From Desulfatiglandales bacterium (GTDB taxonomy: Bacteria; Desulfobacterota; DSM-4660; Desulfatiglandales; Desulfatiglandaceae): a stretch of DNA of 64,000 nucleotides. The notes beneath the pieces are model-generated. The model searched no databases, was not told the origin of the DNA, and saw nothing but the letters and a program-made list of their open reading frames with translations. Below, in pieces: positions 26,007 through 50,215 of this stretch. Both the position numbers and the translations under genes were made by a program. Numbering within the stretch: the first letter of the stretch is position 1; every line of letters starts with the position of its first letter. Location: the NCBI GenBank assembly GCA_963666345.1, contig OY762721.1, forward strand, positions 3,872,001 through 3,936,000, given 5' to 3'.

Positions 26007-26035
26007 TTGACAAATATGTCATGAGAGGTTAGTTT
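26007..26035 (+). promoter_or_regulatory. Sigma70-type promoter of the IclR/reductase operon
   Basis: TTGACA (26007-26012), 17-nt spacer, TAGTTT (26030-26035). Confidence 0.6.
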
Positions 26036-26055
26036 TGTACAAAAGTATAAATAAC

Positions 26056-26070
26056 TTACGCAGAGCGTAA
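26056..26070. promoter_or_regulatory. Palindromic operator, probably bound by the adjacent IclR regulator
   Basis: TTACGC-AGA-GCGTAA perfect inverted repeat between promoter and iclR start codon. Confidence 0.55.
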
Positions 26071-26079
26071 TTATCTATT

Positions 26080-26886
26080 ATGGAACGAACAAAAGAACAT
26101 AGATATTTTATTCAGTCCTTGGCTAAAGGATTGGCTGTATTTGAGGCTCTTGCAGAGGCACAGTCTCCTATTACTCTTTCAGAGATCGCCCAGGCTCTTG
26201 GTACTAATAATGCTACGGCAACGAGGCTCTGTTATACCTTAACGAAATTGGGATTCCTCAGTCGTGATAAACAGAAGCTGTACCACTTAACACCAAAAGT
26301 TCTTGCTTTAGGATCTCACTCCATATGTACTTTGGGTTGGCAAAATATAGCTCAATACTATTTGGAGAATCTTTTCGAGGAGATTCAGGAAACGGTAAGC
26401 CTGTCGATTTTAGACGGTATGGATGTTTTGTATGTAATCAGAATCAGAAAAGAACGCCATCTGCCTTTTGATATTCGGATAGGAACCAAGCTTAAAGTAT
26501 ATTACTCAGCAATGGGAAAGGTGCTTATGGCAATGGGAAATCAAGAAAAAACGCAAAATATATTAAAAGCATTAACCTTTGACCCTTTAACTAATCATAC
26601 TATTAATAGCTTAGATAACTTTTGTGTGGAATTGGATGAGGTTCGGAAAAGAGGTTATGCCATTAATGATGAAGAACTTTCCATCGGAAATCGTGCAATT
26701 GCAGCTCCTTTGGTTGATGCAGAAGATGTTGCAGTGGCAGCGATAAACATCGCTGTTCCGACCATACGATACAGCAGAATGGATTTGGAGGAACGTCTTG
26801 CACCTAAATTAATTAAGGTTTCAGGGGAAATTTCCAAAGCTTTGATTCAATCAGATATGTCTATCGTTTTAGGCGAAGAAACTTAG
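26080..26886 (+). CDS. IclR-family transcriptional regulator (PcaR/PobR-like)
   Basis: IQSLAKGLAVFE HTH start; SAMGKVLMA; VRKRGYAINDEEL..G.RAIAAP. Confidence 0.95.
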   Translation: MERTKEHRYFIQSLAKGLAVFEALAEAQSPITLSEIAQALGTNNATATRLCYTLTKLGFLSRDKQKLYHLTPKVLALGSHSICTLGWQNIAQYYLENLFEEIQETVSLSILDGMDVLYVIRIRKERHLPFDIRIGTKLKVYYSAMGKVLMAMGNQEKTQNILKALTFDPLTNHTINSLDNFCVELDEVRKRGYAINDEELSIGNRAIAAPLVDAEDVAVAAINIAVPTIRYSRMDLEERLAPKLIKVSGEISKALIQSDMSIVLGEET

Positions 26887-26992
26887 ATGAGTACCAAGTC
26901 AGTTTTATGTATGCAAAACATGCGGTCAGAGATGCAGATATTGAAATAAATAAACAATAAAAACCAAAAATATATTTTTAGGGAGGCACTGG

Positions 26993-27487
26993 ATGAACAA
27001 CTGGTTGAAAGGTAAAAAGGCCGTAGTTATCGGAGAAAGGGATGGAGTTCAGGGGCCATCAATTGCAAAGTGTCTTGAGGCAGCAGGTTCAGACGTCGTA
27101 TACGCTGTGACTGAGTGCTTTGTCTGAACGGCTGCCGGAACAATGGATGCGGAAAATCAAGCCCGAGTGAAGAACATCGCTGAAGATTCGAGTGATGAAG
27201 ATAGCTCAAACAACATCATTGTTGTGCTAGGCGCTAGTGATATAGAAGGGGCATTGATTTCAGCGGAAACGGTCACTGAAGGTGACCCGAGCTTTACCGG
27301 TCCATTGGCAGGGGTCTCGTTGAGGCTCCCAGTTTACCATATATTGGAACCAGAGATGAGGGATGCCATTCCAGAGGGAATCTATGAGGAAAATGTTGGG
27401 ATTTGGGCAATGACTGTGGACACCGACACGATAGGCGAGGAGTTCAGAGCAATTCGTGAAAAAGCTTTGAGAAAATCTTCTGGATAG
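26993..27487 (+). CDS. grdA: Glycine/sarcosine/betaine reductase selenoprotein A (Sec at codon 45, TGA 27125-27127)
   Basis: GGGAGG RBS; ATG 26993 reads MNNWLKGKKAVVIGERDGVQGPSIAKCLE...TECFV-U-TAAGTMD...ETVTEGDPSFTGPLAGV in frame with ORF 27143-27487; CxxU motif. Confidence 0.93.
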
Positions 27488-27533
27488 AATTGAAAATTTA
27501 TTGCAATGGAAACATAGATAGAGGAATTCCAAA

Positions 27534-28826
27534 ATGAGACTTCAGATCGAATCCATTGATATAAAAGATGTAAAGGTTGGCTCAAAGAGTTATGTGCTTG
27601 AACATGTGTTGCATCTTAGTCTTCTTGATTTAAAGGAGTTAATTTTAAAAGACGTCAGAATCAGTTCTGTTGAAGTCGATGTGGTATTTCCAGGCGATCA
27701 GGTACGCATTGTAAATTTGGTTGATGTGATTCAGCCACGATGTAAGATAGATCTAGAGGATGCGGATTTCCCCGGTTTTATTGGAAAAGTTAATACGGCT
27801 GGTCATGGGAGAACAAGGTCTCTCCGGGGTGTAGCCGTTCTGGTAGCCGACCCCCAGACTACGAGGAAGTATTCTGCATTTCTCGATATGGCTGGTCCAG
27901 CGGCCAAGCTCAGCCGCTATGCTAAAATGCCGAATATCGTAGTTGCCCCACAGAAGACAGAAAATACGGAGGAACGGGATTTTGAGGACGCCGTAAAGAT
28001 AGCGGGGCTGAAGACAGCGGTTTATTTGGCTCAGGCCGCTGAGGGTCATCCAGTTGATGACACTGAGGTATTCGATCTTGATCTGCCTCGCTTGCCAAAG
28101 GATTCGAACCTTCCCCGAATTGCCTATTACTATCAGCTCTACAGCCCTCAGCACGATCATCATGGCATTTCAGACAAGTGCTTTTATGGTATTGAGGTTG
28201 GCAATCTTCTTCCTACCATAATCCATCCGAATGAAATCCTGGATGGTGGAGTAACCGGCCATCAAACGATCAGAAGTCTTGACACTTACAGCATCCAGAA
28301 CCATGGCGTCGTCAAGGAACTGTATCGACGTCATGGGAAGGATTTGCTCTTCGCTGGCGTCGTTTGCGGGGTGGCGAACATGGAGCCTGTTCAGCGGCAA
28401 CGCAAAGCGATGATGGCTGCAAACCTCATTGCTCACGTGCTAGGGGCCAACGGCTCGATCCTCACGAAAATTCATGGTGGTATGCCACATGTTGATCTCG
28501 CCTTGGTCGGAGAAGAGTGTGAAAAGCGGGGAGTGAAAACAACGTTGTTCGTACAGCCGCTGGTTAGCCAGGGTACACTGTCTGAGACCTCTCTGTTCAG
28601 CTCCGAGTTGCTCGATGCTATAATTGTAGTAGGCGCCACTCAGGAGAGGATCAAGGTGCGATTTCAGCCGGAGAGAATCCTAGGTGGCACAAAGGAGACG
28701 CATCTTTTTACCCCGGATCCATTTGTTCAAAAAGCTGGGGAATCCGTCATAGACACAGAAGAGTTTCTGATAGCCGGTATTCATGACCACATAGGCGGGG
28801 CAAAGATTATCGCAACCGAGTACTAG
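27534..28826 (+). CDS. Reductase component B proprotein-like subunit (GrdE/GrdG/GrdI family)
   Basis: PGDQVRIVNLVDVIQPRCK, AGLKTAVYLA, PTIIHPNEILDG, QNH.VVKELY.RHGK; the usual SGNCVSAC segment is replaced. Confidence 0.9.
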   Translation: MRLQIESIDIKDVKVGSKSYVLEHVLHLSLLDLKELILKDVRISSVEVDVVFPGDQVRIVNLVDVIQPRCKIDLEDADFPGFIGKVNTAGHGRTRSLRGVAVLVADPQTTRKYSAFLDMAGPAAKLSRYAKMPNIVVAPQKTENTEERDFEDAVKIAGLKTAVYLAQAAEGHPVDDTEVFDLDLPRLPKDSNLPRIAYYYQLYSPQHDHHGISDKCFYGIEVGNLLPTIIHPNEILDGGVTGHQTIRSLDTYSIQNHGVVKELYRRHGKDLLFAGVVCGVANMEPVQRQRKAMMAANLIAHVLGANGSILTKIHGGMPHVDLALVGEECEKRGVKTTLFVQPLVSQGTLSETSLFSSELLDAIIVVGATQERIKVRFQPERILGGTKETHLFTPDPFVQKAGESVIDTEEFLIAGIHDHIGGAKIIATEY

Positions 28827-28852
28827 TTCGAACGTTAGGAAGGAAAGAAACC

Positions 28853-30214
28853 ATGAGCGATAAGAAATTGAGAGTAGCTTACTATCTCAACCAGTTTTTT
28901 GGTCAGGAGGGGCGTGAGGAGAAGGCTGACATGAAGCTGATGCTCAAAGAAGGGTCGGTGGGCCCTGGCTTGGCTCTTCAGAATGCTTTGGGGGGAGAGG
29001 CAGAGGTGGTAGCCACCATAGTCGGCGGTGATAACTACGTGGCTACCCATACGGAGGATGCCTCAGCTGAAGTCCTCAGGCTTCTAAAACCCTACAAAAT
29101 CGATTTGTTCTTCGCGGGACCTGCATTTGAGGCAGGACGTTATGGTATAAGCTGCGGGGCCTTGTGTAAAGCAGTGGGAGAAGCGCTTGGGATTCCGGCA
29201 ATTACCGGAATGTATGAGGAAAATCCAGGAGTGGAACTCTACCGAAAGACCAGTTATGTCGTCAAGACAGGGAATTCGGCTATAAAAATGGCCGCAGATC
29301 TGGGGAGAATGGTGGCAATTGGAAGGAAGTTGCTAGGTGAGATAGATGCATCGAGGCTGCTTTCAGGGGAAACGATTGGGCAACCTTCGGAGGATGGGTA
29401 TTTCCCGCGTGGGTTGGTTAAAAATGAATATGTGGAAAAGACGGCTGCTGAACGCGGGGTAGATATGCTCCTAGCGAAACTGGGAAATCTGGACTTTGTC
29501 AGCGAGTTGCCGTTGCCCAAATTTGAAAGGATACCACCTCCGCCTCCGGTAATGGACATCACTTCCTGCGAGGTTGCTCTCGTGAGTGATGGTGGCCTGT
29601 GTCCGAAGGGGAATCCGAATGGCTTGAGCGGTCGGGGAAACAAGATTTGGTGCACCTACGAAATAGATAGCTTATTCTCGAAGGATGTTACTGAGATCGA
29701 GTGCGAAGTGGTACACACCGGATACTATCCGCTGGAGGTTATGGAGAATCCTTTCAGACTGGTACCTGTTGACGTTCTACGGGACCTCGAAAGGGAAGGA
29801 GTTATAGGAAAACTGCACCCAACCTACTTCTGTACCTCCGGCAATGCTACGATCGCAAAGGTGTGTAAGGACATGGGCGATGAGATAGCTACTGAACTCC
29901 TTAACAGAGGTATTCAGGCTGTCATCCTTACGTCAACATGAGGTTCAAGCACTCGTTGCGGGTCAACGATTGCCTCAGCCATAGAAAAAATAGGCATTCC
30001 TGTTGTACAGATTACCGCGGTACCACCAGTGGCTAAAATGGTGGGAGTTAATCGCGCTCTCCGGGGGCAAAAGGTTACCAATGTATTGGGCGATAGTAAT
30101 TTACCTCCGGATAAGGAGAAAGAGCTAAGGCGACGTTACATCAATCGTTCCCTTGAAATCCTGCAATTAAATGTAAAAGAACCACAAATGTTCACGTTGG
30201 ACGGAATAGAATAG
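28853..30214 (+). CDS. Reductase selenoprotein B (GrdB/GrdF/GrdH family; Sec at codon 363, TGA 29939-29941)
   Basis: YYLNQFFGQ.G.EEKAD, AGPAF.AGRYG, ILTST-U-GSSTRCGSTIA...IEK.GIPVVQIT; reads through into ORF 30029-30214. Confidence 0.93.
29949..29973 (+). promoter_or_regulatory. Bacterial SECIS hairpin of selenoprotein B gene
   Basis: GCA-C-TCGTTG[CGGGT]CAACGA-T-TGC stem-loop with a G-containing loop starting 18 nt after the UGA. Confidence 0.7.
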
Positions 30215-30255
30215 AATAAATTCCGAAGGCAATTTGCCAAGGAGAGGAGCGATAT

Positions 30256-30579
30256 ATGGCAAACGAAATAACTGGCGAAAAGTTCGATGAACAAGTTGTT
30301 CAGTCTGAACGGCCTGTACTTGTTGATTTTTGGGGGCCCCTGTGTGGTCCCTGCTTGGCTATGATGCCAGCAGTGGAGGAACTAGAGCGTAAGTACGCTG
30401 ATAAAATCAAGCTCGTCAAAATAGATGCGTCCCGGAACAAGAGATTCTGTTTAACTCTAAAGGTTTTAGGCCTTCCCACCTATCTATTTTATAAAGATGG
30501 CAAAGAGGTGGGTCGTCTTACCGGAGAACATGCTGCCATTGACAACATCGAAGCTACATTGAAGAAGATGATTGGGTAG
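30256..30579 (+). CDS. trxA: Thioredoxin
   Basis: VLVDFWGPLCGPC, GLPT. Confidence 0.95.
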   Translation: MANEITGEKFDEQVVQSERPVLVDFWGPLCGPCLAMMPAVEELERKYADKIKLVKIDASRNKRFCLTLKVLGLPTYLFYKDGKEVGRLTGEHAAIDNIEATLKKMIG

Positions 30580-30602
30580 AATAAAGGAGTGAAAATATAG
30601 CA

Positions 30603-32036
30603 ATGACTGTAGTCATCAAAGAAGTTGCGTATGAGTTGATTTGTGTGCCTGATTTTGTACGGTACGGATCGAAACCCTTTAGGGATATCCCGGAAAAGAG
30701 GGAGTTGTTGCAGGAGATAACAGATCACCTTAGGAACTATGAAGATGTTGTAAACTACCCACCCCATCAGGTCTTCATAGGCAACAAAACTCCTGATGAA
30801 CTCGCTGAAATTCCCAAACCGTGGTACGAGAATCTGAGCAAGGATGGCACGCGACAAGGACCATTTGGGGAAATTATGCCAGAGGATGAATTCTACGGAT
30901 GGATGAAGATCGCTGACGACTTCGATTTGATCTGGTTAGAGGCCGAGTTTGTCGATCAGATTAGAGATACCTTTGCCGTTCACCCATATATCGGTGAAGC
31001 CCAGGTGAGAAAACTTGGAGAAGGGAAATCCTTTTACAAGATAGAGGAGATTATTGATAAGGGGGAAGCGGTGCCTTTGTATTTTCAAGGAAAAATGGTG
31101 GGCTCCCTGCGGCGTGACCATGCCAAAGATGACACATTGAAGCCCCTTGTGCTAATGGAAAATCTTATGGCGAGGGCTTCTGGCTCGCTGGCGATGCTTC
31201 ATCTATTAACTAGGGCAGCGATTTCGCCAACGGAGGTAGATTTTGTTTTAGATTGTACTGAAACGGCCATAGGTGACAGGTACAATAGAGGTGGAGGTAG
31301 TATGTCAAAGGCTATGGCCGAGATGGTGGGTTGCCTGAATGCCACTGGAAATGACATACGGGCTTTCTGTTGTGCTCCCAATCACGCAATCATCAACGCA
31401 GCAGGTCTTGTGGAGGCCGGTATCTTCGAAACCGTCGTGGTAGCCGGAGGTGGTTGTTTAGCCAAGGTTGGCATGAAGTATATGGGGCATCTAAAAAACA
31501 ACATGCCTATTCTCGAGGATGTTTTAGGTGCTATTGCTTTTCTGATAACCAAAGATGATGGATATAGCCCAGTGATTCGATTGGATTCAGTGGGAAAGCA
31601 CGATGTTGGTGCAGGATCACCACAGCAAGCTATCATGACCTCTCTCATCATCAAGCCCCTCGAGAAATTAGGCATGAAAATGACCGATATTGATAAGTAT
31701 TCCACTGAGCTCCACAACCCAGAAATAACAGTGCCCTCAGGCAGTGGAGATACCCCCGCTACTAACTACAAAATCATGGGTGCTCTTGCTGCCTTGAATA
31801 AACAAATTGATAAAACGGAAATTGAACAGTTTGTCAAAGAACGGGGTATGTTGGGGTTTTCTCCTACACAGGGCCATGTACCATCTTCGGTTCCATTTTT
31901 AGGGCATGCAATTCAGGCGATGAAGAGGGGTGAGATTAATAATGCAATGTTCATAGCCAAAGGTAGCCTATTTCTTGGCCGAATGTCTCAGTTGTCTGAT
32001 GGATTATCATTTATCCTTGAGGCAAATCGTACTTAG
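30603..32036 (+). CDS. grdC: Reductase complex component C, beta subunit (FabH-like)
   Basis: YPPHQVFIGN, GDRYNRGGG, RAFCCAP, ELHNPEIT, PTQGHVPS, KGSLFLGRM. Confidence 0.92.
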   Translation: MTVVIKEVAYELICVPDFVRYGSKPFRDIPEKRELLQEITDHLRNYEDVVNYPPHQVFIGNKTPDELAEIPKPWYENLSKDGTRQGPFGEIMPEDEFYGWMKIADDFDLIWLEAEFVDQIRDTFAVHPYIGEAQVRKLGEGKSFYKIEEIIDKGEAVPLYFQGKMVGSLRRDHAKDDTLKPLVLMENLMARASGSLAMLHLLTRAAISPTEVDFVLDCTETAIGDRYNRGGGSMSKAMAEMVGCLNATGNDIRAFCCAPNHAIINAAGLVEAGIFETVVVAGGGCLAKVGMKYMGHLKNNMPILEDVLGAIAFLITKDDGYSPVIRLDSVGKHDVGAGSPQQAIMTSLIIKPLEKLGMKMTDIDKYSTELHNPEITVPSGSGDTPATNYKIMGALAALNKQIDKTEIEQFVKERGMLGFSPTQGHVPSSVPFLGHAIQAMKRGEINNAMFIAKGSLFLGRMSQLSDGLSFILEANRT

Positions 32037-32114: not shown

Positions 32115-33083
32115 ATGGATGACTTCGAAGTTATTATAATTGGTGGAGGACCAGCGGGATTGACTGCAGGACTGTACGCTGCACGTGCTCATCTTAATAC
32201 TGTTCTCCTCGAGGCCAAAGTCCCTAGTGGTCAAGTAGCGATGGCTAATACCATAGAAAACTATCCGGGTTTCCCAAAGGGTATTTCAGGGGTTGAGCTC
32301 ATTGATAGGTTTGCCCAGCAGGCATTGGGAGTCGGCTTGACAATTCGTAAATTTAATATTGTAGAAAAAATGGAGCTGAAAAATGGTAGCAAGATCATCA
32401 CTACGGGGCGCGATAAATATTCAACGTCAACCCTTATAGTTGCAACCGGTGCTCAGTGGAACAAATTAAATATCCCAGGGGAAAAGCAGCTCGCCAATAA
32501 AGGAGTCTCCTATTGTGCAACTTGCGATGGTGCTTTCTTCGAAAATCTGGAAGTAGCTGTAGTAGGTGGAGGAGACACTGCAGTAGAAGATGCCCTCTAC
32601 CTATCTAAAATTGTCAGCAAGGTGTTTCTGGTACATCGTAGAGACAACCTGCGCGCTCAAAAAATATTACAGGACAGGGCGTTAAACAATCCTAAAATTG
32701 AACCTATTTGGGACACTGTCGTCAGGGAGATAAAGGGTGAGGAAATGGTGCGCAGTTTGCTGCTGCAAAACCTCAAAGATTCCAGCACTGCGGAATTATC
32801 GGTCAGCGGTGTTTTTATAGCTGTAGGCCAGCAACCAAATGTGGAATATTTGCGTGGTTTAGTCGATATGGATAAAACGGGCTATATCCTCACTGATGAA
32901 CACTGCGCTACCTCTGTGCCTGGGATTTTTGCTGCGGGAGATGTTCGAAAAAAAGATCTTCGGCAAATTTCCACGGCTGTTGGTGACGGTGCCATCGCAG
33001 CAATGGCAGCGGAGAGGTACATCGAGGAGCAGATACAAGATGAAATTGTTAGTCTAAAAGGAATAGAAGCTTCTCTTCTTTGA
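32115..33083 (+). CDS. trxB: Thioredoxin-disulfide reductase
   Basis: IIGGGPAG, SYCATCDG, GGGDTA, HRRD, FAAGDV. Confidence 0.95.
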   Translation: MDDFEVIIIGGGPAGLTAGLYAARAHLNTVLLEAKVPSGQVAMANTIENYPGFPKGISGVELIDRFAQQALGVGLTIRKFNIVEKMELKNGSKIITTGRDKYSTSTLIVATGAQWNKLNIPGEKQLANKGVSYCATCDGAFFENLEVAVVGGGDTAVEDALYLSKIVSKVFLVHRRDNLRAQKILQDRALNNPKIEPIWDTVVREIKGEEMVRSLLLQNLKDSSTAELSVSGVFIAVGQQPNVEYLRGLVDMDKTGYILTDEHCATSVPGIFAAGDVRKKDLRQISTAVGDGAIAAMAAERYIEEQIQDEIVSLKGIEASLL

Positions 33084-33186
33084 ATTGATTAACCAAGAAA
33101 ATAAGAGGGAATGATATTTATTAGGTGAACAGGGGCCAAATTTGAAACCAAAATACTCTAACTACATTAAAAGGGAGGGAAACGAT

Positions 33187-34134
33187 ATGAAAAAATTTGG
33201 AGCCTTTTTAGTCTTGATATTTTGTTTAGGCCTAATAATTTTGCCTTCAGAGAGAGCATTTAGTAAAGATCTATATGTGTCAATAGCAACCGGAGGGACG
33301 GGAGGAGTCTTTTACCCGGCAGGAGGGGCTATATCCGATTTAATCCGAAAACATTGTCCGTCGGTAAAAGGTGCTACTGCCGAAGTTACAGCTGCGTCTT
33401 TAGAAAATGTAAAACTCGTCAATTCGGGACAAAGTGATTTTGCAATGATGTCTTGGGTCGCTGTTGTATCAGCGGGCATGAAAGACAAAATACCAAACGT
33501 GAGGTCTGTCTTCTTGTTGCACGGAAGTCCACGTCAGTGGATAGTACTCGCAGATAGCAAAATCCACTCTCTTTTGGACTTCAAGGGGAAAAGAGTTGTA
33601 GTAGGTGCTCCCGGAAGTGCTACAGAAGAATGCTCTCGAGCAGTATTTGAATTGATTGGATTGAGTTTTGATGACATTAAGCCAGCATTTCTATCGTTTA
33701 GGGAAGGCGTAGAAGCACTTAAGGATAACCGTGTTGATGTGGCATGTGTCCAAGCGGGGTTTCCAACCTCGACGGTGATGGACATAAACACTGTGCGTGA
33801 TATTAGGCTTATTAACATTAGTAAGAAGAATTTAGAGAAAATAGAGAAGGCATTCCCTTCTATGCCGCCAATTACGATACCAGCGGGAACTTACCGTGGA
33901 CAAGATCAAGATGTTCATACTTGGAACACGCCGGGGCCGATGATTTGTAATAAGGATTTGCCGGAGCAAGCTGTGTATGAAATAGTCAAAGTATTACACA
34001 AGCATAAAGACTGGCTGGTAGAAAATGTACACAGGTTCTGTAAATATTGGGAATTTAGTCCGGTAGTTCAAAAATACTGTCCGCTTCACCCTGGAGCAGC
34101 GAGGTATTACAAGGAAATTGGGTTGTTGAAGTAG
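33187..34134 (+). CDS. TAXI-family TRAP transporter solute-binding subunit
   Basis: Signal peptide; IATGGTGGVFYP, TAASLENV, PLHPGAARYYKE. Confidence 0.93.
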   Translation: MKKFGAFLVLIFCLGLIILPSERAFSKDLYVSIATGGTGGVFYPAGGAISDLIRKHCPSVKGATAEVTAASLENVKLVNSGQSDFAMMSWVAVVSAGMKDKIPNVRSVFLLHGSPRQWIVLADSKIHSLLDFKGKRVVVGAPGSATEECSRAVFELIGLSFDDIKPAFLSFREGVEALKDNRVDVACVQAGFPTSTVMDINTVRDIRLINISKKNLEKIEKAFPSMPPITIPAGTYRGQDQDVHTWNTPGPMICNKDLPEQAVYEIVKVLHKHKDWLVENVHRFCKYWEFSPVVQKYCPLHPGAARYYKEIGLLK

Positions 34135-34543: not shown

Positions 34544-35086
34544 TTGAGTTTGAAAACAATGAAGCACTTTATATTTTTATTACTACTAATATTTAGTATA
34601 GCACCAGGCACTAATGTGTTTGCATCAGTGTGTGGCAGCGAATTTCATATAGAACTTATAAACCATTCCAAAGGCAATAGCCTAATATTGTCTATGATAG
34701 CATCTCCCGAGGATACATTCGAACTCAAATACATCCATTCTGTAGAGAAAACGCCTGTTTTTGAAATCTATAACTTTGATAGTAAGGGACAAATCTATCT
34801 AACTGAAACCACCGTGGAATCATCAGGTTACGGCCTGCCGTTGGCTGAAGATGGGGATAAGGTTGTTTATGGTGAAAAAACTATGACAATCACTGGAATG
34901 CACAAGAGAATCGATTGTTTGTTGATGAGGGTGAGTTATTTGAATGATATGTTCCTCTCTTTTTCTCTATGCAGCATTAACCTGCGTGATGTGGCTTGTA
35001 GTGGGGATCAGATTGAAATAAAAATAAGTGTTGCTGTCAAAAGGGAGATTTTGAATGAGGGAAGTTGCCAATACAGGTGGCGGTGA
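34544..35086 (+). CDS. DUF1850-family TRAP-associated protein
   Basis: YIHSVEKTPVFE...ESSGYGLP; lies between TAXI and fused permease. Confidence 0.75.
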   Translation: MSLKTMKHFIFLLLLIFSIAPGTNVFASVCGSEFHIELINHSKGNSLILSMIASPEDTFELKYIHSVEKTPVFEIYNFDSKGQIYLTETTVESSGYGLPLAEDGDKVVYGEKTMTITGMHKRIDCLLMRVSYLNDMFLSFSLCSINLRDVACSGDQIEIKISVAVKREILNEGSCQYRWR

Positions 35087-37148: not shown

Positions 37149-37571
37149 ATGAAAAGATTTATCAACAGCAAGGCAACCCAATTTGCTCTAGTTTCGATGT
37201 TCTTTATTTTGGCGGTAATCTTTCATTGTTATGGAGTGCAAGCAGAAGCTTCGAGTACGCCTGCCTTTACTGGGGATGTGACATGGAAAGTCGATGCCGA
37301 AGTTGAAGCTACTCTTTTAAGCTGCGAGGTAAAGCCTTATAAGGGATGGAAAAAATCCGTATGTCACTTTGAATTAAACATTAAAAACAAGGCTGATCGC
37401 TCTTTGCGCTTTCGTGTAAGAATTATGTTATCAGAAGAAGGACTTGGATGTGGTGGGTTTGTGCCTCGTAAAACTAAACTTAAGCCAGGCGAAGAAATGA
37501 AAGTAGTATATCCTGTGAGATACGAGAAGATACCTGAGGCCATTGTCATTACTGTTAATACAGTAGAATAA
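37149..37571 (+). CDS. Hypothetical exported protein
   Basis: AGGAGG RBS, N-terminal hydrophobic signal, beta-rich body. Confidence 0.6.
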   Translation: MKRFINSKATQFALVSMFFILAVIFHCYGVQAEASSTPAFTGDVTWKVDAEVEATLLSCEVKPYKGWKKSVCHFELNIKNKADRSLRFRVRIMLSEEGLGCGGFVPRKTKLKPGEEMKVVYPVRYEKIPEAIVITVNTVE

Positions 37572-37891
37572 AAAACCAGGGTCATGAGATGACAGTTGCA
37601 TCTAGCAAAGTTATCGGTAACATGGTTGACTCTGAAACGCTTTTTATAACCAAGATCAACAAAGCCAGCATAGCCCCTCCAGTCATAACCATGAATGACT
37701 GTTGCATAATTTATGCGTCCTTTGATAGCCTATTGCAGTGTAGTTATGGAATGCTATGATGTTTTGAATACTTGCTTTTAACAGCCACAGCTAAAATTTC
37801 TACTACTTTTTAGTGCCTTGTACTAATCGGGGTATTTTATAAAACGCAACCGGCATGGTTAGCTAAAGTAATAAATACAAAGGAGTTGGGT

Positions 37892-39373
37892 ATGAGCTTA
37901 AAGGAAGTAAAGGAAAATTATGGAATGCTGAAGTTATTCATCAATGGGGAATGGGTTGAATCGGAAGCTACAGAAATAAATCAGACCGTAAATCCGGCGA
38001 CAGGTGAGGTTATTGCGGAATTCCCAACCGCAACCATGAAAGAAGCTCGATCTGCAGTTGATGCAGCGCATGGAGCCTTCAAGGAATGGAGAGAGATGCC
38101 TTTGCGAGATAGGGCAACATTGCTCTTCAACATGCGGGGAAAAGTTGTTGAAAAATACGATGAGCTTTGCCGTATCCTGACTCAGGATCATGGAAGGACA
38201 ATGGCGGAATCAAAAGGTTCGTTAAGCCGCGTTATTGAAAACATTGAGTCGGCGTGCTCTGCGCTCTACGGTTTGGTCAAGCGTAACGAGCATATGGATC
38301 AAGTAGCGACCGGTATTGACCAATATCTTATATGGGAACCGCTGGGCGCATTTCTCATCATAACTCCAAGCAATATTCCTATGCATGCTTGGTCATCTTT
38401 TGTTCCATATGCCATGGCGGCTGGCTGCACGGTCGTGGTGAGTCCAAGCAGACAAGATCCTGTCGCTGGGGAAGCTATGTGCAAAGTGGCACAAGAGGTG
38501 GGCTTCCCCCCTGGGGTGATAAACATGATCCACGGTGGAAGGGATATTAACAAGGAAATACTCCTCCAGCCTGAAATTAAAGGGGTTGGGTTTATAGGCT
38601 CTAATAGGGCAGGGTGGGAGCTGTTTGAATTATGCGGGAAACTTGGAAAGACTTCATCTATGAACGGTAATGGTAAAAACCACTGTGTTATTATGCCAGA
38701 TGCCGACGTTGATCAATCTGTTGAATGGCTTGTCAGGGCATGCTTTGGATTGACAGGACAGCGCTGTCTCGGTGTCGATAACGTAGTCATCATTGGGGAC
38801 ATCTACGATGAGGTAAAAACTAAGTTTAGAGAGGCTGCCGCAGCTATGAGGCTCGGATATGGACTTGATGAGGAAACTACACTTGGGCCAATGACCACTC
38901 AGACCGGAAAAGAGAAAGTGATCAACTGGATTGAGCAATCAGTCGCCGAAGGCGCTAAAGTATTACTTGATGGAAGAAATGTGCAGGTTAAGGACTATTC
39001 AGATGGATACTTTATTGGCCCCACTATCCTTGAAGAGGTGAATGTTGATATGTCGATGGCCAAAGAGGAGGCTTTTGGACCAGTGGCGAGCCTGATCCGA
39101 GGAGATAGCCTCGATCAGGCGATAGAATGGATTAACAGCAAGACAAATCTTGGACACTCTGCTTCCATAATGACCCAGGATGGTAAGAAGGCGCGTAAGT
39201 TTATCAGGGAGGTTAACGTGGGCAATGTTGCAGTGAATGTGGCCGTTGCTCAACCTTACGCATTCTTCCCACTGGGGTCTAGGAGAGAATCCTTTTTGGG
39301 TACTGCTAAATCGAGAATGTCTTCTATGAGGATGTTTATGGATGAAAAAACGGTTGTTTCGCGCTGGATATGA
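37892..39373 (+). CDS. Aldehyde dehydrogenase, CoA-acylating (methyl)malonate-semialdehyde dehydrogenase-like
   Basis: GQRCLG catalytic Cys; NGNGKNH in place of ELGGK (as in MmsA/IolA GAKNH); EEAFGPV; PYAFFPLG. Confidence 0.8.
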   Translation: MSLKEVKENYGMLKLFINGEWVESEATEINQTVNPATGEVIAEFPTATMKEARSAVDAAHGAFKEWREMPLRDRATLLFNMRGKVVEKYDELCRILTQDHGRTMAESKGSLSRVIENIESACSALYGLVKRNEHMDQVATGIDQYLIWEPLGAFLIITPSNIPMHAWSSFVPYAMAAGCTVVVSPSRQDPVAGEAMCKVAQEVGFPPGVINMIHGGRDINKEILLQPEIKGVGFIGSNRAGWELFELCGKLGKTSSMNGNGKNHCVIMPDADVDQSVEWLVRACFGLTGQRCLGVDNVVIIGDIYDEVKTKFREAAAAMRLGYGLDEETTLGPMTTQTGKEKVINWIEQSVAEGAKVLLDGRNVQVKDYSDGYFIGPTILEEVNVDMSMAKEEAFGPVASLIRGDSLDQAIEWINSKTNLGHSASIMTQDGKKARKFIREVNVGNVAVNVAVAQPYAFFPLGSRRESFLGTAKSRMSSMRMFMDEKTVVSRWI

Positions 39374-39422: not shown

Positions 39423-40367
39423 TTGAATAAAATCCTCAAATGTGACAAGGGAGTAAAAGAATTGGGAGATGTAATTGGGTTTATTGGTCTCGGCATAATG
39501 GGGATGCCTATGTCGAAGAGATTGCGAGAGACTGGTTATGAGGTGATTGTTTACGATATATCGTCAGAGCCTGTAGAAAAACTGGTTGAAGTGGGTGCTA
39601 AGAAAAGTGCGTCTCCAAAAGATGTCGCATGTCGAAGCGATGTGGTGATATCAATGCTACCAACGCCTACTATTACAAAGAAAGTCATCTTTGGGGAAGA
39701 TGGTGTCAATGCCGGGATTCGGAGAGGCTCAGTGTACATTGATATGAGCACATCTGACCCTTTGCTGACGAGTCATATTGCTGAAGTATTTGAAGAGAAA
39801 GGTGTGCGAACGTTAGATGCGCCAGTAAGTGGCGGAATAAAAGGAGCTAGAGAGGGAACCTTGACAATCATGGTTGGGGGATGTCGGGCTACCTTCGAGA
39901 GAGTTAAAGATGTATTGTCTTGCATGGGTAAGAATATCATGTACACGGGTAGGGTAGGATCTGCGCATACACTTAAAGTTATCAACAATATGTTATTAGC
40001 AATGAATATGGCCGCCACTTCTGAGGCTCTAGCCTTGGGGGTAAAAGCTGGGATTGAACCGACGATGATGCGAGATATTATGTCTGTTAGCTCGGGCAGA
40101 TCCTATGCCTTAGAAGTAAAAGTTAGAGATTTTGTTTTTCCACGAAACTTCGCTCCGGGTTTTACGGTAGATCTTCTAAACAAAGATATAGATATTGCTT
40201 TGAATCTTGGGAGAAGATTAGGAACCCCAGTGCTATTAGGAAACTCGATCAGACAATTGTATGAATCTTTAGTGGCTAAAGGGCAAGGGGGGAAGGATGC
40301 TTCTATCATTATAACCTTTTTTGAGGAAATGATGCATACGAAAAAAATCAAAGGCAAACCAAGTTAA
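39423..40367 (+). CDS. beta-hydroxyacid dehydrogenase (3-hydroxyisobutyrate dehydrogenase/GarR/sulfolactaldehyde reductase family)
   Basis: GFIGLGIMG, DAPVSGG, KVINN, KDIDIA; alternative TTG start at 39462. Confidence 0.9.
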   Translation: MNKILKCDKGVKELGDVIGFIGLGIMGMPMSKRLRETGYEVIVYDISSEPVEKLVEVGAKKSASPKDVACRSDVVISMLPTPTITKKVIFGEDGVNAGIRRGSVYIDMSTSDPLLTSHIAEVFEEKGVRTLDAPVSGGIKGAREGTLTIMVGGCRATFERVKDVLSCMGKNIMYTGRVGSAHTLKVINNMLLAMNMAATSEALALGVKAGIEPTMMRDIMSVSSGRSYALEVKVRDFVFPRNFAPGFTVDLLNKDIDIALNLGRRLGTPVLLGNSIRQLYESLVAKGQGGKDASIIITFFEEMMHTKKIKGKPS

Positions 40368-40587
40368 TGAGTGGTAAGAGAGATTGTTGATAATGGAATT
40401 TTTTCACCTGCTTTTTAGTGGTTTAAAGAGATTTAGCGGAACGGATAAACCATTAAGTGATAGAGCTGTGCATTTTTAGAGAAAAATTAAAAACAAAAGT
40501 GAATGAGGAGCAATCAAAGATTTATAGAGGACGCCGAGCCTGAACTTGAAGATGAACATATAAGTTTAATCCTACTGGAGAAAACAA

Positions 40588-41865
40588 ATGAAACTGAGTA
40601 GAGAACAAGAAGACATGCTGGCAGGAAATGAAGGCTATGGTGTGCAAAAGGCCATGGAGATCCTTACAGCTATGGGAGATGCAGTTGGAGCGGAAAAGAT
40701 GGAACGGATCACCTATGCCCACCTTATGCCCCCGGATCTCATGTTTTTCCCTTATGGTAAGCAGGGCGCATGGGCACATGACATGACTGCAGAGTTAACA
40801 AAAGACCTCAAAGGTTTCAAAGTTATCACAACTGTGGAACCTAAATTCTGTGATCTTTGTATTGCAAAGGACCTTCAATTCACTGATGACATAATAGAGG
40901 AAATGCACAGAATCCAAGGAAATGCCGTGAACTTCTATGAGCGGCTCGGAATTATGACTACCTATACTGCGATGCCTTTTCTTTATTACCAGACCAAACT
41001 AGGAGACCACGTAAGCATTTCTGAGTCAATTGCCACTCTGTGGTCCAATACTATGTTCGGCTCCCGTTGCGAGCGTGACGATGGTGTAACTTCTTTAGCT
41101 GCTGCCATAACTGGTTATATACCCCTATCGGGTGCCCATTTAGATGAACAGCGTTATGCCGAAGTGGTTATAAGACCTGGAGAAGATATCAGCTTTGCCA
41201 AGTTCAACGATGCGGACTGGGATGCCTACAGCCTAGCCGCTAGCCGCAAATGCAAGGAAAAGAGGCCCGTATTTGTAGGGTTACCACCTAAGCCCGGAAT
41301 CACGGCGCTGAAGCACCTTTTGTCGGTTATCGCAGTGGAATCGGGACTTGCTGTCATGCACATCGTAGGCATCACGCCGGAAGCTCCAACTCTAGAAGCT
41401 TCTTTGGCGGGGCACTCGCCCTTGGATGAGTGCATTGTCGGACAAAGGGAAATTGATGAAGCTTACCAGCTTGCCAATACGGCAAAGGGAAGAGACATTG
41501 ACTTCATTCTGCTTGGGTGTCCACATGTAACTATGAGTGAGATGAGAGACTTGGCTCAAACACTTGACGGAAAGAAGCTAAGCAAAGATGTCACCATGAT
41601 CGTCTCCACCACTCGGCTCCTGCTGGAACAGGCAGAGGATATGGGGTATGCCGATATAATCCGCAATGCCGGAGGCATCATGACCAGCGACATGTGTATT
41701 GCCTTTGCTGGATCTAATGTTAAAGGAACCATCGCAACCAATTCCATTAAGGCAGTGTTTTTCTATGCTGGTTTCTGTGCAAGCGCCCCGAACGAAGTGA
41801 AATTTGGAAGCATGACGGAATGTGCTCGATCCGCAGTGAGCGGGAAATGGGAAGGGAGGTTTTAA
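40588..41865 (+). CDS. Aconitase X catalytic (large) subunit, DUF521
   Basis: MKLSREQEDMLAG.EG, SES.A..WSNTMFG.R, HIVGITPEA, LGCPH, DMC, ATNS.K. Confidence 0.88.
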   Translation: MKLSREQEDMLAGNEGYGVQKAMEILTAMGDAVGAEKMERITYAHLMPPDLMFFPYGKQGAWAHDMTAELTKDLKGFKVITTVEPKFCDLCIAKDLQFTDDIIEEMHRIQGNAVNFYERLGIMTTYTAMPFLYYQTKLGDHVSISESIATLWSNTMFGSRCERDDGVTSLAAAITGYIPLSGAHLDEQRYAEVVIRPGEDISFAKFNDADWDAYSLAASRKCKEKRPVFVGLPPKPGITALKHLLSVIAVESGLAVMHIVGITPEAPTLEASLAGHSPLDECIVGQREIDEAYQLANTAKGRDIDFILLGCPHVTMSEMRDLAQTLDGKKLSKDVTMIVSTTRLLLEQAEDMGYADIIRNAGGIMTSDMCIAFAGSNVKGTIATNSIKAVFFYAGFCASAPNEVKFGSMTECARSAVSGKWEGRF

Positions 41866-41868
41866 TTT

Positions 41869-42282
41869 ATGGCCGTATTTAAGGGAAAGAGTGTCGTGAA
41901 AATGGGAGTGGTTGAAGGAGAGGCTTTGGTAACCAAAGATTTGGTTGCTTTCTGGGGAGGAGCGGACTGGGAAACTGGAGAAATTGTGGAAGTAGGCCAT
42001 GACGCAAGAGGTAAGATAGTGGCTGATAAGATATTGGTTTTTCCTATTGGTAAGGGAGGAGGAGGTGAAACCTTTGGTTATTACTATCTGGGCCGTAGCG
42101 GCAAGGCGCCGAAGGCCATTGTGTGTAATCGTTCTCTAGGCCAGACCGTAGCCGGAGCTTTGCTTATTGGAACCCCCATGGTGTATGGTTTCCAGGAAGA
42201 TGTCACTGCCGAGATTGAAAGCGGCGATTGGGTTCGAGTAGATACCGAAAATGGTCAAGTGGAAGTTTTGAAAAAAGGATAA
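41869..42282 (+). CDS. Aconitase X swivelling (small) subunit, DUF126
   Basis: VEGEALVT....FWGG.D..TG.I...GH, KILVFP.GKG, APKAI. Confidence 0.88.
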   Translation: MAVFKGKSVVKMGVVEGEALVTKDLVAFWGGADWETGEIVEVGHDARGKIVADKILVFPIGKGGGGETFGYYYLGRSGKAPKAIVCNRSLGQTVAGALLIGTPMVYGFQEDVTAEIESGDWVRVDTENGQVEVLKKG

Positions 42283-42286
42283 GGAT

Positions 42287-42595
42287 ATGCCAATTGATGC
42301 AATAATGATAAAGCCTAGTGACAATGTCGCTACAGCTCTAAGGGAGCTTTCACCCGGTGATATTGCCAGAGTTGGGATTGGAAAGGATACGAAGGAAATT
42401 ACCATAAGGGATAACATAGCTTACGGTCATAAGTTTGCGACTAGGGATATTGTGCAGGGTGAGCATATTGTAAAGTACGGGGAAATCATGGGCTGTGCAA
42501 CTTTAGATATCGGTGCTGGTTTTCATGCTCACATTCAGAATATAGAAAGCTTAAGAGGAAGAGGCGATCTTGGAGATGCGAGGATTAAAAAATAG
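42287..42595 (+). CDS. UxaA-family SAF-domain small subunit (SuyA-like)
   Basis: DNVATAL, GHKFA, KYGE..G.A...I..G.H.H..N. Confidence 0.88.
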   Translation: MPIDAIMIKPSDNVATALRELSPGDIARVGIGKDTKEITIRDNIAYGHKFATRDIVQGEHIVKYGEIMGCATLDIGAGFHAHIQNIESLRGRGDLGDARIKK

Positions 42596-42596
42596 C

Positions 42597-43757
42597 ATGG
42601 AATTTATGGGCTACAGGCGAGCTGATGGGCGCATTGGTACACGAAACTACGTGGGGATAATTTCGACCGTAGTTTGCGCTAATGAAGTTACCGATTCAAT
42701 ATCAAGGGCAGTTGCCGGAACTACTGCTTTTTTACACCAGCAGGGGTGCTGTCAGACACCGGTTGATATTCAAAGGGTAAATGACACCCTGACCAACCTT
42801 GGAAAAAATCCCAACTTGGCTTCTGTACTCCTGGTGAGCCTGGGTTGCGAGAGCACTGAGGTGACTGCGGTAGAGGAAGCAATAGCTGGGACAGGAAAGC
42901 GTGTTGAAACAGTAGTAATCCAGGATATAGGAGGCTCTGCAAGAACCTTAGCAGAAGGTTCGCTAATTGCACAGGACATGGTTCAGGAAGCGTCTAGCCT
43001 CAAGCGTGTAGCTTGCCCCTTGTCGGAACTCATGCTGGGACTCAAATGCGGGAGCTCGGATACTACATCCGGGCTTGCACCTAATCCTGCAATGGGAATT
43101 GCATCAGACATGATCGTGGAACAGGAGGGTACCTCTATACTAGGCGAGGTAACCGAATTCATAGGGGCTGAGCATATCCTTGCCGGACATGCTAGAGATG
43201 AAAAAATTGCAGGTCAGATTCTCTCTCTGGTGGAACGCATGGAGGCAAGGGCTAAATCCGTGGGAGCTGATATTAGGGGCGGTCAGCCGACTGGGGGAAA
43301 TATCAAGGGAGGGCTTACCACCATTGAGGAAAAATCCCTGGGTGCCATCGCCAAGGCAGGTAATGCTCCGATTCAGGCAGTGTATGAATACGGAGAAATA
43401 CCAAAGGTCAAGGGCCTAGTGGTTATGGATTCTCCGGGAAGGGAACCTGAAATTCTAACAGGCCTTGCGGCGGCCGGATGCACGGTAATTGCTTTTGCCA
43501 CAGGTCGGGGAGCACCTCAGGGATTTCCTTTCGTGCCTGTGATTAAAATAACGGGCAATCCCTTGACTTGGGAAAAACTTCGCGATCATATGGACCTGAA
43601 TGTAAGTGGTTTGATGGAAGGAAATAGTTCACTTCCGAAGGAAGGCGAGAAGATTTTCAATGAAATTCTTGCGGTTGCCTCTGGAAAACTCACCAAGGCT
43701 GAAATCTCCGGGTACACTAAGGCTATGGATATATACATGGTTGGACCGGTGATTTAA
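42597..43757 (+). CDS. UxaA-family dehydratase/sulfo-lyase large subunit (SuyB/altronate dehydratase-like)
   Basis: GYRRADGRIGTRN, HQQGC, LGCE, KCGSSD, GNIKGGLTTIEEKSLG, FATGRG. Confidence 0.9.
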   Translation: MEFMGYRRADGRIGTRNYVGIISTVVCANEVTDSISRAVAGTTAFLHQQGCCQTPVDIQRVNDTLTNLGKNPNLASVLLVSLGCESTEVTAVEEAIAGTGKRVETVVIQDIGGSARTLAEGSLIAQDMVQEASSLKRVACPLSELMLGLKCGSSDTTSGLAPNPAMGIASDMIVEQEGTSILGEVTEFIGAEHILAGHARDEKIAGQILSLVERMEARAKSVGADIRGGQPTGGNIKGGLTTIEEKSLGAIAKAGNAPIQAVYEYGEIPKVKGLVVMDSPGREPEILTGLAAAGCTVIAFATGRGAPQGFPFVPVIKITGNPLTWEKLRDHMDLNVSGLMEGNSSLPKEGEKIFNEILAVASGKLTKAEISGYTKAMDIYMVGPVI

Positions 43758-43895
43758 GAATCGTTTCAATCACTATCTAGCGACTTTTGAATTGTAAAAT
43801 ATTATGACCAGTATTTATTTACACATACACGTGAATTTTTTTAAGGGCGCATTCATATTGGTAGATAACAGCTGCGCCCCGGTTAACCTGTCAAA

Positions 43896-45161
43896 GTGGA
43901 GCGATCAATGGCCTACCCGAGCATGATAATGCTTCGTCAACAGCTGGACAATACTGAGGTGGGTGATGTCCATGCCGCAGTTAAAGAAGAGCTGAAACGA
44001 ATTAATCTCCCCGCACGCATCACTCCTGACTCCAAGGTGGCTATCACCGCTGGTAGCCGCGGGATTACCGACATTGTTCCCGTGCTGGGTGCTATTGTTA
44101 GGGAGGTGAAAGAAATTGGGGCGCAGCCCTTCCTGGTGCCTGCGATGGGCTCCCACGGCGGTGCCACTGCAGAAGGCCAGCTGGAGATACTCAAAGACTA
44201 TGGCATTACCGAGCAAAGCGTGGGTGCATCCATAGTTTCTTCCATGGAAGTTCTTGCCATCGGGAAAACCGAAGACGGAATATCTGTTATGATAGACCGA
44301 AATGCCGCAGACGCTGACCACATAATAGTCGTAAACCGGATTAAGCCTCATACCGAGTTCCAGGGAAGTGTCGAGAGCGGCCTAATGAAAATGATGGTGA
44401 TTGGGCTTGGTAAGCACGAGGGAACAATCATTGCACACGACTATGCTGTCAAATATGGATATGAGCACACTATCCTCTCCATCGGCCAGTGCATCCTGGA
44501 CAACGCCCCCATAGCATGCGGTGTGGGAATAATAGAAAACGGCTATGGTAAAACCGCTCGAATTGCAGCAGTCTCGCCCGAGGTTTTTGCTGATAGCGAA
44601 AGAGCCCTCTTGACAGAAGCAATTAAAAAAACTCCCAAACTGCCCTTCAATAAAATAGATGTTCTCATAGTTGATGAATGCGGAAAAGAAATCAGCGGGA
44701 CCGGTATGGACACCAAGGTTGTGGGCCGTATAATGAATATCTATGAACTGGAGGTTGATAAACCTTCAATAACACGTATCATTTTGAGGGATTTAACTCA
44801 AAAGACTCATGGGAACGCTTTGGGTATGGGGCTTGCTGATTTTATAACAAGAAGGGCTGCTGACAAAGTTGATTTCCGTTCGACCTATGTTAACTGCGTC
44901 ACTGCCGTGACCCCGGAAAAGGGACGTCTACCAATAGTATGTGAGACAGACCGTGATGCAATTGACTTTGCTATCGCAACTGCAGGCCCGGTTGACGCCA
45001 AGAGCCTTAGGCTTGTCTGGATCAAGAATACCTCCAAACTGGGAGAGATGTTTGTTTCAGAGGCCCTTATGGCTGTTGGCAAGAAAATGAGAGGGATTAC
45101 CCTGTACGGAGAACCGTGCACCATGGACTTCGATGATGAAGGAAATCTCAAGAGGCCCTGA
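43896..45161 (+). CDS. LarA-like (DUF2088) nickel-pincer-dependent racemase/epimerase homologue
   Basis: AITAGSRGI, PAMGSHGG, NRIKPHT, GKEISGTGMD, GNALGMGLAD. Confidence 0.8.
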   Translation: MERSMAYPSMIMLRQQLDNTEVGDVHAAVKEELKRINLPARITPDSKVAITAGSRGITDIVPVLGAIVREVKEIGAQPFLVPAMGSHGGATAEGQLEILKDYGITEQSVGASIVSSMEVLAIGKTEDGISVMIDRNAADADHIIVVNRIKPHTEFQGSVESGLMKMMVIGLGKHEGTIIAHDYAVKYGYEHTILSIGQCILDNAPIACGVGIIENGYGKTARIAAVSPEVFADSERALLTEAIKKTPKLPFNKIDVLIVDECGKEISGTGMDTKVVGRIMNIYELEVDKPSITRIILRDLTQKTHGNALGMGLADFITRRAADKVDFRSTYVNCVTAVTPEKGRLPIVCETDRDAIDFAIATAGPVDAKSLRLVWIKNTSKLGEMFVSEALMAVGKKMRGITLYGEPCTMDFDDEGNLKRP

Positions 45162-50201: not shown

Positions 50202-50215
50202 AAGGAGGTCCCTCA

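Follow-up and report, generated by a model that had tools for sequence, protein, structure and literature searches.

What does a selenium-dependent reductase of the glycine reductase family act upon when its acyl-phosphate-forming partner is missing, its substrate-binding signature is altered and its genes run directly into those for a transporter and a set of hydroxy-acid enzymes? The question is raised by a 64,000-nucleotide stretch of the genome of a Desulfatiglandales bacterium (contig OY762721.1, positions 3,872,001 to 3,936,000; hereafter the window), in which 18 consecutive open reading frames (ORFs), all on the + strand, form a 19-kb block at 26080-45161. A first-pass annotation of the window had listed these genes with their coordinates; both list and positions proved right, with all 18 on one strand. 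We assigned their products to families by matches to Pfam and NCBIfam models, reading scores against the curated cut-offs. As judged from models, trees and motifs, the predicted reductase belongs to a separate branch of the glycine/sarcosine/betaine reductase family that has yet to be characterised, and it is encoded as a complete, self-contained set at 26080-33083:

26080..26886, + strand: IclR-family regulator (PF01614, 1.4e-40; PF09339)
26993..27487, + strand: selenoprotein A (GrdA), selenocysteine (Sec) at codon 45 (NF040748, 197.5 bits against a cut-off of 130; in-frame TGA at 27125-27127)
27534..28826, + strand: GrdE-like B subunit (PF09338, 1.8e-85, 287.5 bits)
28853..30214, + strand: GrdB-like selenoprotein B, Sec at codon 363 in the motif UGSSTRCG (PF07355, 1.6e-123, 412.9 bits; TGA at 29939-29941)
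30256..30579, + strand: thioredoxin, TrxA (PF00085, 3.5e-25)
30603..32036, + strand: GrdC of the lone lineage, that is, without a GrdD partner, with Cys-Cys at 256-257 (NF040746, 662 against 450)
32115..33083, + strand: thioredoxin reductase, TrxB (TIGR01292, 381.5 against 343)

The host genome, one contig estimated at 96.7% completeness, encodes tRNA-Sec and SelB (393.8 bits against a cut-off of 242), and the TGA of the GrdB-like gene occupies the identical position in all 62 GrdB-family rows that were read. The GrdB-like gene is the sole full-strength member of its family in the host genome. An Rfam search of 24500-46000 returned no match at E <= 0.1. Among sequencing runs, no RNA data set holding the sequence was listed, and the two DNA ones came from a single study.

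Membership of the superfamily is plain, with the GrdB-like protein reaching 438.6 bits on TIGR01918 (cut-off 65), while the models that name a substrate are all missed. The window's B subunits fall short of the GrdB equivalog TIGR01917 (396.3 against 602.2), of the sarcosine reductase models for GrdF (443 against 800) and GrdG (225 against 780), of the betaine reductase model for GrdH (NF040795; 399.3 against 775), of the fluoroacetate reductase model for FarE (NF053623; 188.5 against 675) and of the D-proline reductase model for PrdB (TIGR04483; 78.4 against 300). Thirty-one of 32 GrdB homologues from related loci likewise fail every specific model, a single one passing an equivalog, which indicates that a large part of the family is uncharacterised. 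No curated model names the lineage, and a search of the PDB found no solved relative of the GrdB-like protein.

Phylogeny leads to the same placement. Tree references were labelled by the cut-offs and comprised a GrdH with its neighbouring GrdI (locus L141; L and G numbers denote the loci and genomes compared), a GrdF with GrdG (L142) and three GrdB-GrdE pairs (L143, L145, L053); both trees were built with a quick method, whose output flagged some long rows, and the support values below are those of that method. In the GrdB-family tree of 62 rows, the labelled GrdB, GrdF and GrdH proteins and four near relatives, nine rows altogether, lie on one side of a branch of support 100. The window protein lies on the opposite side, in a 28-row clade (support 97) that holds no labelled member. 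The GrdE-family tree agrees, placing the window's subunit within a set of 26 rows (support 99). A FarE reference was sought in five Synergistota genomes, none of which gave a protein over the cut-off, so that the tree carries no FarE row. The first-pass annotation had called the cluster atypical, and had named nesting of the B subunits within characterised glycine or betaine reductase clades as part of what would speak against its proposal; by trees and curated cut-offs alike, they lie outside the characterised clades.

Their divergence can also be followed in individual residues. The 'SGNC' cysteine of canonical GrdE is residue 242 in three of three GrdE references and residue 244 in GrdG, and the accessible text of PMC9908766 gives the pyruvoyl peptide of Clostridioides difficile GrdE as aa 242-266. 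In the window's GrdE-like protein Thr245 aligns with this pyruvoyl-precursor Cys242 and the 'ACDK' stretch is absent, so that the Asn-Cys242 proprotein signature of GrdE is lacking. The same column holds Phe in the GrdI that adjoins a cut-off-passing GrdH, and Val or Ala in Geobacter-type relatives. A different cysteine, Cys216 in 'SDxCFYG', is invariant across the window's GrdE-like lineage and absent from the canonical proteins. In the selenoprotein partner, the Sec motif reads UGTCTRCG in nine of nine rows on the characterised side of the tree versus UG[ST]S[ST]RCG in 53 of 53 others; in the window Ser thus replaces Cys three residues after selenocysteine (U+3). The GrdB motif, published as YxNx6GGE ... 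CGD ... AHGGxD[QTAP] ... TxGNxTxV (PMC9751293, in the part available), is not reproduced, the corresponding elements in the window being GRE, GGD, VHTGYYP and TSGNATIA. Within HTGYYP, the Asp of the H[GA]G[YF]D element (HGGxD in the published motif) that is common to GrdB, GrdF and GrdH has become Tyr. From these features we infer that the enzyme would bind its substrate without a Schiff base, as proposed for betaine and fluoroacetate reductases, although it appears to be a member of neither group.

The second departure concerns protein C, which consists of GrdC and GrdD and forms acetyl phosphate, according to the accessible text of PMC9908766. The GrdD model NF040747 finds no match in the host genome, and when the same genome was searched by tblastn with the GrdD of L010, the best hit covered 137 aa at 27% identity (E 5.5e-4). 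The earlier proposal of reductive cleavage to acetyl phosphate by C/D components consequently does not hold as written. The same holds in other genomes: the 19 GrdC rows (17 genomes) that share 51-78% identity with the window's lack a neighbouring GrdD throughout, whereas GrdD adjoins GrdC in 16 of 16 rows that are 44-48% identical. All but one of the lone-GrdC rows have more than 1.2 kb of readable sequence downstream. The lone lineage is approximately 30 residues shorter than the paired one; 18 of its 20 rows have Cys-Cys at positions 256-257, a site that reads Cys-Ala in 16 of 16 paired rows. In one relative (G201) genes for an ADP-forming acyl-CoA synthetase (ACD) and a CoA transferase come after the lone GrdC, which would fit an acyl-CoA product.

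The lineage so defined is far from rare in metagenomes. The GrdE-like protein falls into more than 120 clusters at 90% identity, all metagenomic, 62-81% identical and nearly all of exactly 430 residues. A scan of one genome per species with an alignment of GrdE-like proteins as query recovered 55 loci; a single GrdE-like sequence used as query against genome contigs returned no relatives. Representatives occur in metagenome-assembled genomes (MAGs) of Desulfobacterota and others. Homologues of the IclR regulator, 48-67% identical, stand directly upstream of GrdA in 13 other loci, all from Desulfobacterota MAGs (Syntrophaceae, Desulfobacterales, Desulfobaccales and others), a thioredoxin follows GrdB in 11 other loci, and the full run IclR-GrdA-GrdE-GrdB-TrxA-GrdC is present in eight. 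The claim of an atypical selenium-dependent reductase with its own transporter is supported. The lack of GrdD and of the pyruvoyl precursor, together with the changed Sec motif, makes it more precise.

The remainder of the block comprises a TAXI-TRAP transporter operon and genes for enzymes of the kind that act on hydroxy acids:

33142..34134, + strand: TAXI-family TRAP solute-binding protein (TIGR02122, 253.8 against 84; solved TAXI proteins at ~1e-37)
34544..35086, + strand: DUF1850 protein of TAXI-TRAP operons (PF08905, 9.2e-17)
35055..36998, + strand: fused TRAP permease (TIGR02123, 684 against 321)
37149..37571, + strand: 140-aa protein with a hydrophobic N-terminal stretch, seen by eye (no Pfam or NCBIfam match)
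37886..39373, + strand: aldehyde dehydrogenase (ALDH), nearest to CoA-acylating methylmalonate-semialdehyde dehydrogenase (TIGR01722, 396.1 against 448.5)
39423..40367, + strand: beta-hydroxyacid dehydrogenase of the 3-hydroxyisobutyrate dehydrogenase (HIBADH)/tartronate-semialdehyde reductase family (PF03446, PF14833)
40588..41865, + strand: AcnX large subunit (PF04412, 1.5e-91; PDB 7cnr, 2.9e-41)
41869..42282, + strand: AcnX small (swivel) subunit (PF01989, 3.2e-19)
42287..42595, + strand: N-terminal part of a UxaA/GarD-type dehydratase, 102 aa (TIGR03248 positions 3-73, 3.8e-7, a weak match)
42570..43757, + strand: C-terminal part of the UxaA/GarD-type dehydratase (PF20629, 1.8e-86, and PF04295; PDB 6u7l, galactarate dehydratase, 6.4e-54)
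43896..45161, + strand: LarA-like nickel-pincer isomerase, NPN isomerase group 22 (NF052515, 512.5 against 400)

Set against the enzymes that they most resemble (MmsA/MmsB, the AcnX protein LhpI, GarD/UxaA and the LarA racemases), the downstream proteins belong to the same Pfam families and stay below the function-specific models. The ALDH does not reach the cut-off for methylmalonate-semialdehyde dehydrogenase, the next best ALDH family scoring 293 bits; it reads NGNGKNH at what we take to be the position where hydrolytic ALDHs carry their general-base Glu, and an Arg precedes the catalytic Cys. The beta-hydroxyacid dehydrogenase is below TIGR01505 (272 against 341) and the HIBADH model TIGR01692 (267 against 292), the AcnX large subunit below the model for cis-3-hydroxy-L-proline dehydratase LhpI (NF051439; 175 against 700, the small subunit scoring 45), and the UxaA-type protein below that for galactarate dehydratase (215 against 731). 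The short N-terminal part of the latter is 47-60% identical to ORFs that precede homologues of the C-terminal part in L012 and L140. Only the LarA-like protein passes its model, whose name carries no assigned reaction; group 22 was not found in the accessible portion of the LarA paper PMC11770544. LarC, the member of the nickel-pincer cofactor pathway covered by our search, is encoded in the host genome (458.8 bits). The same genome holds two more group-22 paralogues of LarA (G000:C1:1050823-1052076 and 1815498-1816682; 45% and 42% identical) and three classical LarA homologues.

How might these parts work together? The reading that we favour, and to which we give an even chance when it is taken as a whole, is that of an uncharacterised GrdD-less reductase for an imported carboxylate, accompanied by peripheral hydroxy-acid genes specific to this host. 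The TAXI-TRAP system would import a carboxylate X-CH(R)-COO-, and the selenolate of the B subunit would attack its alpha-carbon directly, with no Schiff base; direct selenolate attack is the mechanism thought to apply to betaine and fluoroacetate reductases. The acyl-seleno group would then pass to GrdA and on to GrdC, which, because GrdD is missing, would probably release the acyl moiety as a CoA thioester or free acid instead of acetyl phosphate, and GrdA would be re-reduced by NAD(P)H by way of TrxB and TrxA. The seven downstream genes (for the ALDH, the HIBADH-like protein, AcnX, UxaA and LarA group 22) would constitute a host-specific peripheral pathway that either makes the substrate or consumes the leaving group, other members of the lineage carrying other peripheral sets. 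The absence of GrdD raises a mechanistic question of its own, namely by what route the acyl group is released and whether or not ATP is conserved.

A number of observations weigh against this reading. The release step proposed for the lone GrdC is conjectural, and L010, L016 and Geobacter-type relatives pair the same type of B module with GrdC plus GrdD, once together with acetate kinase, so that the chemistry of the B module is compatible with an acyl-phosphate output. The transporter presents a second difficulty. A TAXI-TRAP system adjoins the core in five other loci (L003, L006, L008, L010 and L011), where the systems are mutually 65-68% identical, but the window's is not orthologous to it (28% and 34% identity). 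The earlier suggestion that the reductase has its own transporter is supported by this recurrence, although the recurring systems are of another lineage than the window's. Relatives of the latter do occur: the TAXI/DUF1850/permease arrangement recurs in L060 and L088, and a 29% relative of the 140-aa protein precedes TAXI in L060. In a metagenome scan with the TRAP permease the best relative was 53% identical and none of 80 loci lay near Grd, AcnX or UxaA genes, a result that says little about linkage. The downstream enzymes fare no better in the 25 other loci whose GrdE is at least 58% identical. Here the sole counterpart of the ALDH is 26% identical and encoded on the opposite strand (L018); neither the HIBADH-like gene nor LarA group 22 is present in any, UxaA is present in one, and AcnX occurs in none within 10 kb, being met once ~9 kb after GrdC in G201 at 29% and 39% identity; four extended downstream stretches contain none of the window's downstream genes. 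LarA group 22 is found in 68 of 401 genomes of the phylum as against five of 401 for the reductase, and it stands by a Grd gene in none of ten contexts examined, its neighbours there being TRAP/TAXI transporters, GlcD-like oxidases or sugar-acid genes. The UxaA and LarA proteins closest to the window's (76% and 62% identical) are in G201, 53 kb from the Grd core. Finally, separate promoters could lie in the intergenic gaps of 409, 314 and 220 bases. A search of nine gaps for a common operator gave 34 shared 14-mers (up to two mismatches), where shuffled sequences gave 28.9 on average and at most 49; the near-palindrome seen at 26907, which has a relative at 37758, does not exceed chance.

Many of these observations suit a mosaic, in which two or three independent units have come to share one island: the reductase, with or without the transporter, next to unrelated hydroxy- or sugar-acid operons that use the TAXI-TRAP system. 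The ALDH and the HIBADH-like protein would then form one unit and AcnX, UxaA and LarA another, with no metabolic link to the reductase. We consider such an arrangement somewhat unlikely, while taking it as a serious contender. In G201 the pair of UxaA and LarA group 22 that lies away from the Grd core is accompanied by genes for a short-chain dehydrogenase/reductase (SDR), PrpD and a Liv-type ATP-binding cassette (ABC) transporter; LarA group 22 is flanked by TAXI and TRAP genes in L160 and L161, and in L158 its neighbours are DctPQM and a GlcD-like oxidase; and in L060, whose transporter is related to the window's, PrpD follows that transporter. The 314- and 220-base gaps with no shared operator motif point the same way. 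Pulling in the other direction, the 18 genes lie on one strand with no regulator after iclR, and the gaps are without a reported terminator-like site, although this is a weak test (13 terminator-like sites against 15.9 expected and 32 promoter-like sites against 37.6 expected, hence no signal from either scan). Dehydratases and dehydrogenases of four families, moreover, occur directly beside relatives of the reductase. In L012, a Synergistota MAG, the N- and C-terminal parts of UxaA, 47-48% identical to the window's, are inserted between GrdB and TrxA-GrdA, in company with an iron-containing alcohol dehydrogenase, an aldehyde:ferredoxin oxidoreductase and a Liv-type ABC transporter. In L004 and L052, PrpD, an SDR and a Liv-type ABC transporter follow the core, and in G201 a same-strand run comprises the core, a 2-hydroxyacid dehydrogenase, ACD, a CoA transferase, a Liv-type ABC transporter and the large and small subunits of AcnX. 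Loci of the other Grd clades gave no match to UxaA, AcnX or PrpD in tblastn searches whose only queries were the proteins of the window and the PrpD of L004, which counts against the mosaic. The proposal that the downstream set is coupled to the reductase is supported in that hydroxy-acid enzymes of some kind recur beside the lineage, and not supported for the window's own set, which does not recur. A single pathway through AcnX, UxaA, LarA and MmsAB-type enzymes remains plausible, at about an even balance with a mosaic of neighbouring operons.

If there is such a pathway, a bolder version of it can be formulated. The B module would cleave a bond other than C-N, for example C-O or C-S in a carboxymethyl ether, a thioether or a sulfonate; the lone Cys-Cys form of GrdC would deliver the acyl group to CoA; and the hydroxy acid released would be racemised by LarA, dehydrated by UxaA and AcnX and oxidised to acyl-CoA by the HIBADH-like and MMSDH-like (methylmalonate-semialdehyde dehydrogenase-like) enzymes, with electrons passing to TrxB. 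We regard this as improbable, but were it true it would amount to a selenium-dependent internal redox fermentation of a class of compounds without a known anaerobic route. There is a precedent for part of it. In Cloacibacillus, genomic and transcriptomic data led to the proposal of a fluoroacetate reductase, FarB-FarE (PMC10838667), which represents a GrdB/GrdE-type module acting on X-CH2-COO- with a non-nitrogen X, and whose operon includes a dedicated transporter. The far operon differs from the window in having a radical-SAM gene and a major facilitator superfamily (MFS) antiporter, and in using shared GrdA/C/D.

The favoured reading of an uncharacterised, GrdD-less reductase must also be set against two conventional substrates. 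One would make the enzyme a divergent true glycine reductase that serves as an electron sink, with glycine arriving from varied peripheral pathways. All parts belong to the family, and the glycine reductase complex of Peptoclostridium acidaminophilum, Clostridium sticklandii and C. difficile shares with the window a clustered set of Sec-containing GrdA, an adjacent GrdB/GrdE-family pair, GrdC, TrxA and TrxB. Source annotations name the relatives 'glycine reductase', some of these have GrdC plus GrdD and acetate kinase, their neighbours vary by genome as they would around a hub metabolite, and the corrinoid methyltransferase sets in L006, L153, L013 and L052 could demethylate N-methylglycines. 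The role of the GrdE pyruvoyl group in glycine binding is, in addition, debated (PMC9908766, accessible text), so that the absence of Cys242 does not strictly exclude glycine, a further point against the favoured reading. Yet the window lacks both GrdD and Cys242, has Ser at U+3, an altered HGGxD and a score below TIGR01917 (396 versus 602), misses the published GrdB motif at three places, lies outside the GrdB/GrdF/GrdH side of the branch of support 100, and adds an IclR regulator and a TAXI-TRAP transporter to the complex. In genomes such as G605 and G206, non-canonical paralogues stand alongside a GrdB that is canonical or nearly so, which argues for different specificities. Glycine is for these reasons a substrate that we think improbable. 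The other conventional candidate is a quaternary ammonium or sulfonium acetate (another betaine, dimethylglycine or dimethylsulfonioacetate), reduced in the manner of betaine reductase with no need of a carbonyl cofactor. Like the betaine reductase GrdH-GrdI, the window has an E-family subunit without the pyruvoyl Cys, as seen in the GrdI beside a cut-off-passing GrdH, and attack would probably proceed without a Schiff base in both; corrinoid methyl-transfer genes stand beside the core in four of 17 related loci, and relatives are common in sediment metagenomes, as judged from contig names. Unlike the window's protein, however, GrdH keeps UGTCTRCG and the Asp of HAGFDP. The window scores 399 against 775 on the GrdH model, lies outside the GrdH clade, has Tyr in place of the Asp of H[GA]G[YF]D, presumed here to be the partner of a cationic nitrogen, and contains no methyltransferase genes. 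We accordingly hold a substrate of this type to have a slim chance.

The corrinoid methyl-transfer genes just mentioned (URO-D type, B12-binding protein, MtrH and RACo, the last once fused to a pyridine-nucleotide oxidoreductase) directly adjoin the core in four MAGs. Their positions, with those in L168, are as follows:

Corrinoid methyl-transfer genes: L006, 9900-12181; L168, 14320-19817; L153, 8329-9300; L013, 6620-8173; L052, 6711-8276

Such heterogeneous neighbours suit a reductase whose substrate is a small hub compound fed by several peripheral pathways, a pattern that does not in itself identify the compound.

Among 96 other genomes of the host family the lineage was not found, one of the 96 giving a match at E <= 1e-30 that is distant (37% identity), and in the phylum sample it occurs in four of 400 other genomes. 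The flanks of the block are rich in defence and mobile functions. Upstream, the + strand of the window at 6839-24608 encodes an SNF2/ResIII helicase, a DUF4391 protein, an N6/N4 DNA methylase, ResIII and a restriction endonuclease (RE), an OLD-family AAA/TOPRIM nuclease, a 560-aa protein without a family match and a 1517-aa protein with Sacsin and NOV_C domains. Downstream, at 47671-53541, an IS21 pair (rve/Mu-transposase-C and IstB) is followed by a SMODS/DncV-like nucleotidyltransferase (CBASS-like) and then by an AAA_14/DUF4143 ATPase. A 256-nt direct repeat, with copies 92% identical at 25113-25368 and 53658-53913, brackets 25369-53657 (28.5 kb). Each copy opens with a ribosome-binding-site-like AAGGAGG followed by ATG and contains a small Cys-rich (zinc-ribbon-like) ORF, so the repeats may be island boundaries or a duplicated small gene. 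Taken together, the rarity in family and phylum, the flanks and the bracketing repeat are read as signs that the block was probably acquired horizontally.

Our literature search found no paper describing the lineage, although the complete Grd tree of PMC9751293 (Fig. S6), which lay outside that search, may show it. In public pipelines its members carry the label of glycine or sarcosine reductase. The lineage is abundant and widespread, and conclusions that rely on such labels about carbon flow and a 'reductive glycine pathway' in anoxic sediments and digesters may therefore be mistaken where these organisms are concerned. The window provides a whole-genome setting for finding what the lineage reduces, and a complete, single-copy system in a one-contig genome is a clean background for substrate identification.

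Several related loci show further variation in the family. In L012, two identical GrdB-like genes (2477-3832 and 11326-12681) lie 9 kb apart, one alone before ABC transporter genes and the other after GrdE, either a real duplication or an assembly repeat. The GrdB-family selenoprotein genes of G206, the genome of L038, comprise GrdH, GrdF, GrdB and a member of an uncharacterised gut clade, while in G605, the genome of the Desulfovibrionaceae relative L032, three non-canonical genes accompany a single near-canonical GrdB (597.5 against 602). A search from L032, made to place the glycine reductase of D. desulfuricans G11 (PMC7547702), reached no named isolate, and that enzyme may be of either type. 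With up to four GrdB-family genes of different clades per genome, several further substrate specificities probably remain in the family. The electron supply may vary as well: in L153, a homologue of the ferredoxin:thioredoxin reductase catalytic chain (PF02943, 6432-6734) lies between TrxA and the lone GrdC, a hint that electrons in that MAG may come from ferredoxin and not from NAD(P)H.

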